Positions 4,419 through 56,386 of a stretch of 64,000 nt of DNA are shown in pieces. Positions within the stretch are counted from its first letter, which is position 1. Each line of letters opens with the position of its first letter. This DNA is from Cyanobacteriota bacterium (GTDB lineage Bacteria > Cyanobacteriota > Cyanobacteriia > Thermostichales > Thermostichaceae), in NCBI GenBank assembly GCA_033764955.1, contig JANRIL010000023.1, positions 32,001-96,000 on the forward strand, given 5' to 3'. Under the pieces are notes generated by a model that did no database searches, had not been told where the DNA came from, and saw only the letters and a list, made by a program, of their open reading frames with translations. A program made the translations under genes and the position numbers.

Positions 4419-4569
4419 ATCCGCTCGCCTGTGTCCTCAGAAAAAGGGATCCCTTTTTCCGTTCCTAAATGGGATAAAACTGCTAGTTTCTGGTGTTTTT
4501 TCTGGAGTGTTTTTTAGTCACTATCAGTCACGATGGTGCCAAAAAAATAATTAATGAATGGCTGATCAC

Positions 4570-5388
4570 TCATTCGTGGTGGCTGAAGCGCCGATAGAGA
4601 AAATCAAGAGCATAATTCCGCAGTTCATAATATTCGGGGGTTTCCAAAATTTGGGTGCGTTGGCGGGGTCGTGCAAAAGGGATCTCTAGGATTTCACCAA
4701 TTTTGGCGGCAGGTCCATTGGTCATCATGACCAGCCGATCCGCCAGAAAAAGAGCCTCATCAATATCATGGGTAATCATCAAAATTGTGCAGCGATGATC
4801 CCGCCAAATTTTTAACAATTCTTCCTGCAATTCCTCTTTGGTGATAGCATCTAGCGCCCCAAACGGTTCATCCAATAGCAACACCTGCGGACGAATCGCC
4901 AAAGCGCGAGCAATGGCTACCCGTTGTTTCATACCCCCCGATAACTGGTGAGGACGTTTGTGGGCGGCTTCGCTCAGCCCCACCATCTCCAGGTGCTCTT
5001 TCACAATCGAGCGCCGTTCCAGTATGGACTTTTCCGAGAAAACCTGACTGACCACCAATTCCACATTTTCAAAAGCGGTCAACCAGGGCAGGAGGGCATA
5101 GTTTTGAAAGACCATCATCCGATCTGGCCCCGGTTCGCTAATCGGTTGATCGTTCAAGAGAATGGTTCCACTACTGGGGGTGGAAAAGCCTGCCACCATG
5201 TTCAAGAGGGTGGACTTGCCACAGCCGGAGTGACCGATCATGCAGATCAGTTCTCCCGCCTTCACCGAGAGATTGATGGGATCCAACACCCGCAGATCCC
5301 CGTAGGATTTGGTAACCGATTGAATGTCTAGCAAAGGTTTCACCGACGGATTGGATAAACGAGCCGGAGGGGAAGCGGAGATCAGCAT
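4570..5388 (-). CDS. nrtD: Nitrate ABC transporter ATP-binding subunit D
   Basis: GHSGCGKST, LSGGMKQR, LLDEPFGALD. Start uncertain (ATG 5388 or TTG 5430). Confidence 0.93.
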   Translation of the reverse strand: MLISASPPARLSNPSVKPLLDIQSVTKSYGDLRVLDPINLSVKAGELICMIGHSGCGKSTLLNMVAGFSTPSSGTILLNDQPISEPGPDRMMVFQNYALLPWLTAFENVELVVSQVFSEKSILERRSIVKEHLEMVGLSEAAHKRPHQLSGGMKQRVAIARALAIRPQVLLLDEPFGALDAITKEELQEELLKIWRDHRCTILMITHDIDEALFLADRLVMMTNGPAAKIGEILEIPFARPRQRTQILETPEYYELRNYALDFLYRRFSHHE

Positions 5389-54953: not shown

Positions 54954-55375
54954 AACGGTTATTGCAAGAGATTGAAGAAATTTTCATGAATGGACAAACT
55001 ACCCTAACAGCTAGATGGAGGCCATCGCTGAGCTGCGACCCATGGAAGGATCCCTCAACGGGAATTCCTAAACAATAGCCATGCAAAAAGCAATGTTAGG
55101 AGATTTATCTTCAGGAGATCTTTAGGATAATACTCCCTCTCCTGGCTGTTAGCTCAGGTAACCCCAATATTTGCTTGGGCTAGCCAAACAATGGGTGTTT
55201 CGCAAATAAGACTCTCTCACCTTGCTTGCTTGTGGACAGGTTGTTGGTAATGAACGATACTTTTCTCAAAGAAAATTCACAGGGATCCCTGGCACTTTCG
55301 TCAAGCCCAATACCTTCTTACCCTCGGATCCCCGCCTAGCATTTGAGCAGAGCAGAGGAATGGAGAAGGAAGCTC

Positions 55376-56386
55376 ATGATTTGCATCCCGAACAAGAGGA
55401 GGCAGGGATCCCTACTCTGGGAATCTGTCTTCTGGCTGATGGGTGGCTTTGTGGTTGGGACTCCAGGGGCTGAGGCATACCCAAAAACCTTTCAAAAAGG
55501 GATTGTTCAGTCGGTTGAAAATGGCGACACCATTTGGGTGAAATTACCCGAATCCGGCAACAGGTTGGTGCAGGTGCGCTTAGCCAATATTGATGCCCCC
55601 GAGATGGGTCAATACCCTTGGGGAGAGTTATCCCGACAGGCACTGGCCGCTCGGCTCCCCCAAGGACAGGAGGTGATGCTCAACACCCGCTATGTCACGC
55701 CGGATCCCTTGCATATTGCGGAGGTGTATACCCCCAAAGGCTTAATTAACCTGCTGATGCTCAAGGAGGGGCAGGCTGTTCTGTATGGGTATCATTTGCC
55801 TCCTAGCTCGGATCTCAGCTACTACCAGGCAGCTCAGTTGGGGGCGCAGACCGCCCGCCTTAACTTTTGGGATCAAGCCCAGCCGGAAATGCCCTGGGAT
55901 TTTCGCGCCAGTCAACTGTCAACCAGCACCTATGGAAGTGTTCCATCCGCAATTCCTTTCTGGAATCGGGTGGTTGATGCTCCCCTAGCCCCCGTGGGAT
56001 TTGGACTGCTAGCGCTCCTGATGGTGATCGGATCGGCTTCATGGATGAAGCAGAAGATGTTAAAAGCCTTGCCTTCAGTCTCTCTCTCCCGCCAGGAATG
56101 TCAGCGGTCACTGCTGCATAGTCTAACTCTACAAAAAAAATTGGAACGGCTACTGGATCGAGCCAAACAAGAGGAACATCGTTGGCAGGAGAGACTAGCC
56201 CTAGCCTTGCAGCAAGAAAATCTTCCCTTGAGTGAAACCTGCCTCACCCAGAAAAATCGCCATAGCCAAACGATCAACGATCTGCAAAGCTCCTTAGAAG
56301 AGGTGACGAGAGACGTGACCCACTGGCGAGAATCTCTTATCCAGGCCGAACAGCCCGTCAGCCATCTGACTCCACCTCAGACCTAG
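55376..56386 (+). CDS. Thermonuclease (SNase)-like domain + TM + PspA/Vipp1-like coiled-coil fusion
   Basis: Signal peptide (AEA|Y); NGDT, VRLANIDAPE, INLLMLKEGQA, PWDFR; TM GFGLLALLMVIGSA; C-terminal WQERLALALQQ. SD-like GGAGAAGGA before ATG 55376. Confidence 0.8.
   Translation: MICIPNKRRQGSLLWESVFWLMGGFVVGTPGAEAYPKTFQKGIVQSVENGDTIWVKLPESGNRLVQVRLANIDAPEMGQYPWGELSRQALAARLPQGQEVMLNTRYVTPDPLHIAEVYTPKGLINLLMLKEGQAVLYGYHLPPSSDLSYYQAAQLGAQTARLNFWDQAQPEMPWDFRASQLSTSTYGSVPSAIPFWNRVVDAPLAPVGFGLLALLMVIGSASWMKQKMLKALPSVSLSRQECQRSLLHSLTLQKKLERLLDRAKQEEHRWQERLALALQQENLPLSETCLTQKNRHSQTINDLQSSLEEVTRDVTHWRESLIQAEQPVSHLTPPQT

Follow-up and report, generated by a model that had tools for sequence, protein, structure and literature searches.

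What does an exported, nuclease-like domain do on a protein whose other end resembles Vipp1, a relative of the ESCRT-III polymer-forming proteins? The question is raised by P0001, a gene within the 64,000-nucleotide stretch of cyanobacterial DNA analysed here (the window), whose product runs in the order signal peptide, SNase-like domain, transmembrane (TM) helix and Vipp1 hairpin. For the family, identical proteins are on record from Thermostichus and from Synechococcus of hot springs, so that it belongs in the Thermostichales, and database names for them are either "PspA/IM30 family protein" or "thermonuclease/micrococcal nuclease", each covering one domain only. The features of the locus are as follows.

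55362–55372, + strand: Shine-Dalgarno-like, purine-rich stretch 5′ of the ATG, read from the sequence, with AGGA 5 nt upstream of the start ATG
55376–56386, + strand: P0001 gene, 336 aa, predicted type I membrane protein (ORF, Pfam, relatives)
55376–55477, + strand: predicted signal peptide, residues 1–34, with A-E-A at its end (motif and family pattern)
55490–55915, + strand: SNase-fold ectodomain, residues 39–180 (Pfam, AlphaFold, fold comparison, anchoring on S. aureus nuclease)
55916–55984, + strand: Ser/Thr/Pro-rich linker of low model confidence (AlphaFold)
55985–56044, + strand: one predicted TM helix, in which G210 is unchanged in 24/24 (hydropathy, alignment)
56045–56074, + strand: basic juxtamembrane segment (sequence, K/R counts in relatives)
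56075–56350, + strand: Vipp1-derived hairpin, alpha1 at 234–279 and alpha2/3 at 283–325, corresponding to Vipp1 ~35–126 (profiles, AlphaFold); residue equivalents (P0001=Vipp1) are K254=K55, W270=W71, R273=R74, A277=A78, L285=L86 and L290=L91
53877–54953 and 51073–53524; 56516–58306, 58449–61205 and 61352–62980, − strand: neighbour genes in the window

An earlier, sequence-only reading of this DNA proposed the SNase–TM–hairpin architecture with a signal peptide, and Pfam, hydropathy, AlphaFold and the relatives all bear it out. The Pfam SNase match covers residues 66–167 (E 1.8e-9, above cut-off), and an AlphaFold model built from a 24-row alignment shows the SNase fold (39–180) and a two-helix hairpin (234–279/283–325), mostly at pLDDT >90, with the linker and TM segment at low confidence. 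Hydropathy peaks at ~2.0 near residues 199–222, followed by KQKMLK. In all 29 relatives examined, a hydrophobic stretch at the N-terminus is followed by one internal hydrophobic segment, with 3–7 K/R after the latter and 0–3 before it, and 24/24 aligned members carry an [AV]-x-[AG] cleavage-like motif (the alignment holds 24 relatives, with five of the 29 omitted as near-duplicate or truncated). Together, these features point to an outside N-terminus and an inside C-terminus by the positive-inside rule. P0001 has the least typical signal peptide of the family, with a hydropathy of 1.2 and a Glu in its h-region.

The identity of the tail was approached from several directions. Pfam PspA_IM30 (PF04012) aligns P0001 240–329 with profile positions 40–129 at E 3.5e-6 and 27–30 bits, below the 33.9-bit whole-protein cut-off; many relatives exceed that cut-off (e.g. 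60–68 bits), and 24/24 fusion members match the family at E≤0.01. TIGR02977 (PspA) matches the P0001 tail at E 3e-7, and the top PDB sequence match is to Vipp1 residues 45–131, without gaps, at E 7e-5. On a profile of 31 stand-alone Vipp1/PspA hairpins, from which the fusion tails and the vipp1 of the same genome were excluded, P0001 ranks second among the 7,894 ORFs of its genome with 37.7 bits, behind vipp1, and the best ORF outside the PspA family scores 7.9. The tail alone scores 42.2 bits and its reverse 3.5; none of 500 shuffles exceeds 9.8, and none of 500 heptad-block shuffles exceeds 17.2. Comparison of the family profile with a Vipp1 profile gives a probability of 99.6 and E 8e-24 over 105 columns. 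The sequence-only reading had proposed ungapped Vipp1/PspA homology, and had named a generic coiled coil as the alternative; the former is upheld by profiles, PDB match and shuffles, and the latter is rejected by the hairpin profile, the shuffle controls and the profile–profile comparison. In fold comparison the tail reaches Z 11.4 with Vipp1 and 11.0 with PspA, and up to Z 12.0 with unrelated hairpins; since unrelated coiled coils tie on structure, it is sequence comparison that confirms the P0001 tail as a true Vipp1/PspA alpha1–3 hairpin.

The hairpin is only part of a Vipp1. Homology begins at Vipp1 ~35, immediately after the TM helix, and 24 tails end at Vipp1-equivalent positions 126–149. 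Alpha0, alpha4 and alpha5 are absent, and the alignment extents agree with the earlier statement that the amphipathic N-terminal helix and the polymer helices are missing. The family thus shares with Vipp1/IM30 and PspA, and most closely with Thermostichales Vipp1 ("group I" in the available text of PMC11304991), the ungapped alpha1–alpha3 hairpin of Vipp1 ~35–126(135) with K55, W71, R74, A78, L86 and L91; unlike Vipp1/PspA, it lacks alpha0, alpha4, alpha5 and alpha6, possesses an integral anchor and an ectodomain, and has lost basic-surface and ATPase residues (R44, E179 and often E126).

Among 26 tails, which share ancestry and are not 26 independent events, K55 is kept in 26/26, W71, R/K74 and L91 in 24/26 each, L86 in 23/26 and R88 in 19/26. 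Poorly kept positions are R44 (5/26), L125 and E126 (12/26 each), K128 (0/26) and, in alpha1, Q45 (12%) and R56 (3/26); R44, R56 and K95 are mostly gone, and the tails stop near or ahead of L138 and R142. K55 is the sole charged Vipp1 position retained in 26/26; E179, with which it is listed as paired, belongs to a helix missing from the tails. P0001 is the most eroded member, retaining 5/18 Vipp1-invariant positions (others 7–14) with R88 replaced by Glu, A75 by Leu and A87 by Ser. Its tail is 21% identical to Thermostichales Vipp1 (other tails 21–45%) and sits on a long branch (length 2.1) in the hairpin tree.

A branch with 99/99 support sets the 26 tails off from everything else in that tree (~105 columns, unrooted, no outgroup); their point of attachment lies among Thermostichales Vipp1 and not with PspA or other cyanobacterial Vipp1, and dropping three long branches does not change it. 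Likewise, 25/26 tails score highest on a Thermostichales Vipp1 profile and P0001 ties, in a comparison of group profiles of differing size (19, 7 and 6 rows). The simplest history, as we infer it, would be that the hairpin portion of vipp1 was duplicated once and joined to a secreted SNase.

The ectodomain has the fold of such a nuclease, with Z 16.6 and an rmsd of 2.3 over 127 aligned residues of 1sta and a Foldseek match to staphylococcal nuclease at E 3e-9. Numbered by anchoring on S. aureus nuclease, P0001 keeps D51, R68, D73 and E76 as equivalents of D21, R35, D40 and E43, so that the Ca2+ ligands (D21, D40) and the general base (E43) are present. N49, T108, D110 and L112 stand where SNase has D19, D83, Y85 and R87; a one-residue insertion permits a shift by one at R87, to H113, which is His and not Arg. 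Catalytic residues of SNase include Arg35 and Arg87, according to the available portion of PMC8436206. In the family as a whole, D40 is kept in only 8/24 members, D83 and Y85 are missing in 24/24, and R87 is missing in all 8 of P0001's clade. The full set D21/R35/D40/E43/R87 occurs in 0/24 fusions versus 53/65 stand-alone SNases, of which 31/65 come from a motif-based, biased scan; the other 34, from Cyanobacteriota, have all five in 27/34.

A branch with SH-aLRT 97 sets off the fused SNase domains, which divide into subclades of 8 (with P0001; support only 84) and 16 (support 100), the latter without R35 and D40. Position D40 in the clade of 16 (e.g. L015, L025, L031, L036) is often Arg (YIRPP) and D21 is mostly kept; at a guess, the Arg may fill the metal site.

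Over 8 orthologues, dN/dS is 0.071 for the SNase domain, 0.039 for the TM helix and 0.122 for the tail, and in a 4-sequence paralogue clade without R35, D40 and E43 it is 0.068 (SNase) and 0.148 (tail); these are means over non-independent pairs, none of which includes P0001, for which no close relative was found for a lineage-specific dN/dS. Both the SNase domain and the tail are under purifying selection in the relatives. Because the SNase domain is conserved in both clades, it does something, and the role of the ectodomain is probably binding rather than cleavage. The TM helix has the lowest value and an invariant Gly, which suggests helix–helix packing.

The SNase domain is not always needed, because a TM+hairpin form without it is kept. 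Three such proteins are on record. The form, which has no signal peptide either, is seen in genus g6 (L041, L039, L040); at L041:2967-3500 the TM+hairpin gene is complete, at 178 aa, and none of the frames of that locus encodes an SNase. Two relatives cut by contig ends align with this form (pN 0.18, pS 0.65–0.72). The three genomes with the TM+hairpin form also carry a full clade-B fusion copy, and each has two full-length vipp1-like genes. Nucleic-acid cleavage, which the sequence-only reading had offered as one function, finds no support in a family with 0/24 full active sites, a P0001 domain without Arg87, Asp83 and Tyr85 equivalents, and a SNase-less form.

Taken as a whole, the comparison with secreted staphylococcal and cyanobacterial SNases (PF00565) is one of shared fold, predicted export signal and, in P0001's clade, D21/R35/D40/E43; the family differs from them in its replaced D83-x-Y85-x-R87, its attached TM helix and predicted cytoplasmic hairpin, and its loss of the SNase domain in one genus. 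P0001 is not PspA/Vipp1 proper because alpha0, alpha4 and alpha5 are missing, nor a standard thermonuclease because the R87 loop is missing; it is a predicted Vipp1 accessory.

The fusion recurs across the family. It is intact, with both domains, in 21/23 genomes of the family, that of P0001 included, so the possibility that orthologues lack it did not hold. In the remaining two it is found in two halves at contig ends (G008) or in three frameshifted pieces (G012; L014 / G012:C18:1262-2546), the latter a pseudogene or an assembly error. Chance or assembly fusion is ruled out by the intact full-length relatives, which a search with P0001 as sole query already brought up, and by recurrence across family genomes. 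The sister family has the fusion in 1/7 genomes (G025), where G025:C24 holds tandem copies at L033:3194-4108 and 4507-5256, the second having lost most of its hairpin. Two full fusion copies occur in seven genomes of the order, and full-length Vipp1/PspA is present in 30/30; the profile run on these 30 Thermostichales genomes was built from 24 relatives at the same loci, and its scores there are inflated. P0001 is the only fused copy found in its genome.

Outside the order, 401 genomes across the phylum were scanned, with five candidates scored per genome; among the 150 of 534 matches listed, a two-domain match occurs only in the two family genomes of that set, and the best outside genome has a SNase-only match (E 2.5e-34). 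A TM+tail profile was also run on 151 genomes from the class; of the 150 of 256 matches listed, seven from outside the family extend over the TM, and all seven are PspA with a Gly-rich insertion. Nine matches from outside the family that at first looked as if they covered the TM proved to be full-length-type PspA with a Gly-rich insertion, not fusions, and a tenth long frame among the candidate wider fusions is an ordinary Vipp1. In at least 133 pattern-scan loci (32 genome, 21 viral, 80 metagenome), the tail occurs in two metagenome loci, both of the family, and in 0/21 viral loci. Word-index protein searches returned only family members or one stand-alone SNase, a weak result since known members were missed, and the ESM Atlas yielded no fusion, its matches all being SNases or generic helical look-alikes. 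Among the genomes sampled, the architecture is confined to one deep cyanobacterial lineage.

Other unusual PspA-like proteins were met along the way. The Gly/Ala-rich, hydrophobic insertion (~120 aa) lies between alpha0 and alpha1 in PspA/Vipp1 paralogues of 317–390 aa from nine other cyanobacteria (L075:2660-3805, L076:2706-3821, L077:2721-3791, L255–L260), where it is possibly a second mode of anchoring PspA/Vipp1. A soluble PspA-like protein of ~176–188 aa at L151:1615-2178 (G002:C2) has only alpha0–alpha3 and an acidic/Pro-rich end. The genome of P0001 also encodes a TIGR04376 PspA-like protein (G000:C4:92060-92740; L024:1444-2124) and a divergent 257-aa PspA-like protein that is hydrophobic in its N-terminal part and matches no NCBIfam entry (G000:C28:91938-92708; L022:1381-2151), whose gene adjoins what we take to be a murA-like gene.

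The P0001 gene stands alone, divergent from one neighbour and convergent with the other, is unlinked to vipp1, and has no terminator and only promoter-like sites near chance. Judged from translations, the divergent neighbour is presumably a branched-chain amino-acid ABC operon and the convergent one a TrkA-type (TrkA-domain) channel gene, with a presumed GH57-type hydrolase and a sulfatase also in the window. None of these window neighbours is conserved beside the relatives, and neighbours are common only within a genus, none being conserved between genera. In 2/4 genus g2 loci (L153:1521-2495, L025:3936-4499), the clade-B copy has an SPFH/HflK-like gene two genes away, which is probably plain synteny. 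No tie to the phage-injection and DNA-uptake roles suggested earlier emerges from the unconserved neighbours or from the 21 viral loci, none of which has the tail.

What, then, might the protein do? The explanation placed first, with a probability slightly short of even, is that P0001 is a membrane-anchored, acceptor-only end-subunit that seeds or caps Vipp1 polymers at chosen sites, its ectodomain being non-catalytic. Sec export would deliver the SNase domain to the periplasm or to the thylakoid lumen, and the TM helix would take over the anchor role of alpha0. The hairpin tip would then receive alpha5 of full-length Vipp1, and K55 would receive alpha4 (E179). With no alpha4 or alpha5 to donate, the protein could occupy only one protofilament end, as seed or cap; a seed or anchor is favoured because the protein is tethered and able to cluster. 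In the last and weakest step, an outside ligand (in P0001's clade, Ca2+ plus a phosphate-bearing ligand) may alter clustering via the TM helix, the exported SNase-fold domain serving as a binding or sensing module and not as a nuclease.

The retained residues fit this explanation. In PspA rods, as described in the available text of PMC11746142, alpha5 contacts between subunits involve W71, K74, R88 and L91, the hairpin–hairpin interface involves R44, K55, L125, K128, L138 and R142, and E179 pairs with K55. By alignment, the tails keep the alpha5-receiving side plus K55 and lose R44/L125/K128, a pattern that fits recruitment of Vipp1 by the tail. Vipp1 rings and filaments are reported to need alpha5 (PMC8281802; PMC11919738, both in part), so the tail alone should not build a normal lattice. 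At1g64430, a TM protein with an ESCRT-III-like hairpin, is reported to co-purify with Vipp1 (available text of PMC13051332). Counted against the end-subunit explanation are the eroded P0001 tail, the lack of vipp1 linkage and of conserved neighbours, and the frameshifted G012 gene. Moreover, the retained W71, A75, A78, L86, A87, A90 and L91 may simply stabilise the hairpin, and losses near 125–128 fall at a fraying tail end and are thus partly expected.

A more specific version of the same idea, rather unlikely as it stands, is a receptor-type ESCRT-III nucleator, in which the dead nuclease would sense a Ca2+/phosphate-ligand cue and trigger a Vipp1 polymer via the TM helix.

It is unlikely that the tethered hairpin acts alone, binding anionic lipids and destabilising or fusing bilayers without Vipp1. 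The isolated IM30 hairpin is reported to bind anionic membranes (PMC12636044, in part), to fuse liposomes far faster than the full-length protein (PMC6374351, in part) and to drive condensates (bioRxiv 10.64898/2026.02.28.708693, in part), and the TM+hairpin form is kept although it has no ectodomain. Lipid binding by the hairpin on its own is electrostatic, however, according to the same portion of PMC12636044, and the positive charge is not kept in the tails: net charge over Vipp1 36–125 is +2 to +6 in all 32 Vipp1/PspA, and −6 to +7 with a median of 0 in 26 tails (P0001 0). Invariant K55 would also be left unexplained.

Similarly improbable is a decoy or brake, whose hairpin would poison Vipp1 polymers or bind Vipp1 partners (VIA1, chaperones) with no seeding. 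A chain terminator would also look like an acceptor-only subunit, and the tail keeps most of alpha1, the helix to which VIA1 is reported to bind (PMC13505992, in part); the alpha1 surface beyond K55/E58 has drifted, however, at R44, Q45 and R56. Capping itself overlaps the end-subunit explanation, and sequence cannot separate it from seeding.

Doubtful, too, is an active exported nuclease or a nucleic-acid receptor for DNA uptake or phage injection, whether it works with Vipp1 or only uses the tail as an anchor. P0001's clade (8/24) keeps D21, R35, D40, E43 and the C-terminal PW(D/E)FR motif, 7/8 of its members have a His after the lost Arg87 position, selection is strong, and the SNase domain of P0001 shares ~42% identity with a secreted, intact SNase encoded in its own genome. 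Against these stand the loss of D83 and Y85 throughout and of R87 in all of that clade, and the other 16 members lack R35 and D40, yet the four tested are equally conserved. In addition, the genome encodes a separate, intact SNase with a full active site at C28:68276-68992, and no uptake or defence genes were seen linked to the fusion gene at the loci compared. Least probable is that the family works with Vipp1 while the P0001 tail is drifting or has switched partner: its divergence and weak signal peptide would suit this, but the reading frame is unbroken, the hairpin aligns in register without gaps, K55, W71, R74, L86 and L91 are kept, and no other fused copy was found in the genome.

Closest in concept are other Vipp1 factors, compared by description only. 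At1g64430 (PPR), VPL2 and VIA1 are likewise anchored and/or hairpin-bearing: in the available text of PMC13051332 and PMC13505992, At1g64430 and VIA1 are membrane-anchored, At1g64430 and VPL2 bear hairpins, VIA1 is ESCRT-II-like, and all are proposed to set sites of Vipp1 recruitment. A Pfam scan of P0001 gave no match to a winged-helix or PPR family. NlpC/P60–PspA and PspA–PspAA fusions (PMC11237479, in part) also join PspA_IM30 to another domain; the main text and one supplement of that paper name no nuclease-fold or TM-separated PspA fusion, although its web app could list one. The word "nuclease" is absent from the main texts of PMC11237479, PMC7619361, PMC13051332 and PMC11304991. Thermostichales Vipp1 and PspA are treated in PMC11304991 with a BLASTP bit-score filter of 250, which a partial hairpin would probably fail, as far as the available text goes. 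In Table S8 of that paper, two entries, one of 978 nt and one of 915 nt, bear both the micrococcal nuclease and the PF04012 label and are left there without comment; by length and labels they are probably members of the P0001 family. RPKM is 0 for both, as it is for vipp1 of one of those genomes, and is uninformative on expression. The conserved architecture is real, and no published description of a SNase–TM–Vipp1 hairpin fusion was found in the literature searched, which was mostly that outside subscription journals.

The finding bears on how Vipp1 is directed to particular membrane sites. The role suggested for VIA1 leaves recruitment of Vipp1 to thylakoids unexplained (available text of PMC13051332), and the Thermostichales lineage has been proposed as the oldest with thylakoids (PMC11304991, in part). 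Significance is limited by the narrow range of the family and by the putative nature of Vipp1 binding; within that range, a membrane-anchored Vipp1 hairpin in nearly every genome of the lineage is a natural candidate seed or cap for ESCRT-III polymers, and a P0001-type tail could be a possible reagent for fixing polymer polarity in vitro. If the nucleator reading were true, the cue would be periplasmic or lumenal, in the form of nucleic-acid fragments or another phosphate-bearing ligand, the tail would be a built-in first subunit, and the earliest thylakoid-bearing cyanobacteria would have a lineage-specific means of targeting Vipp1.
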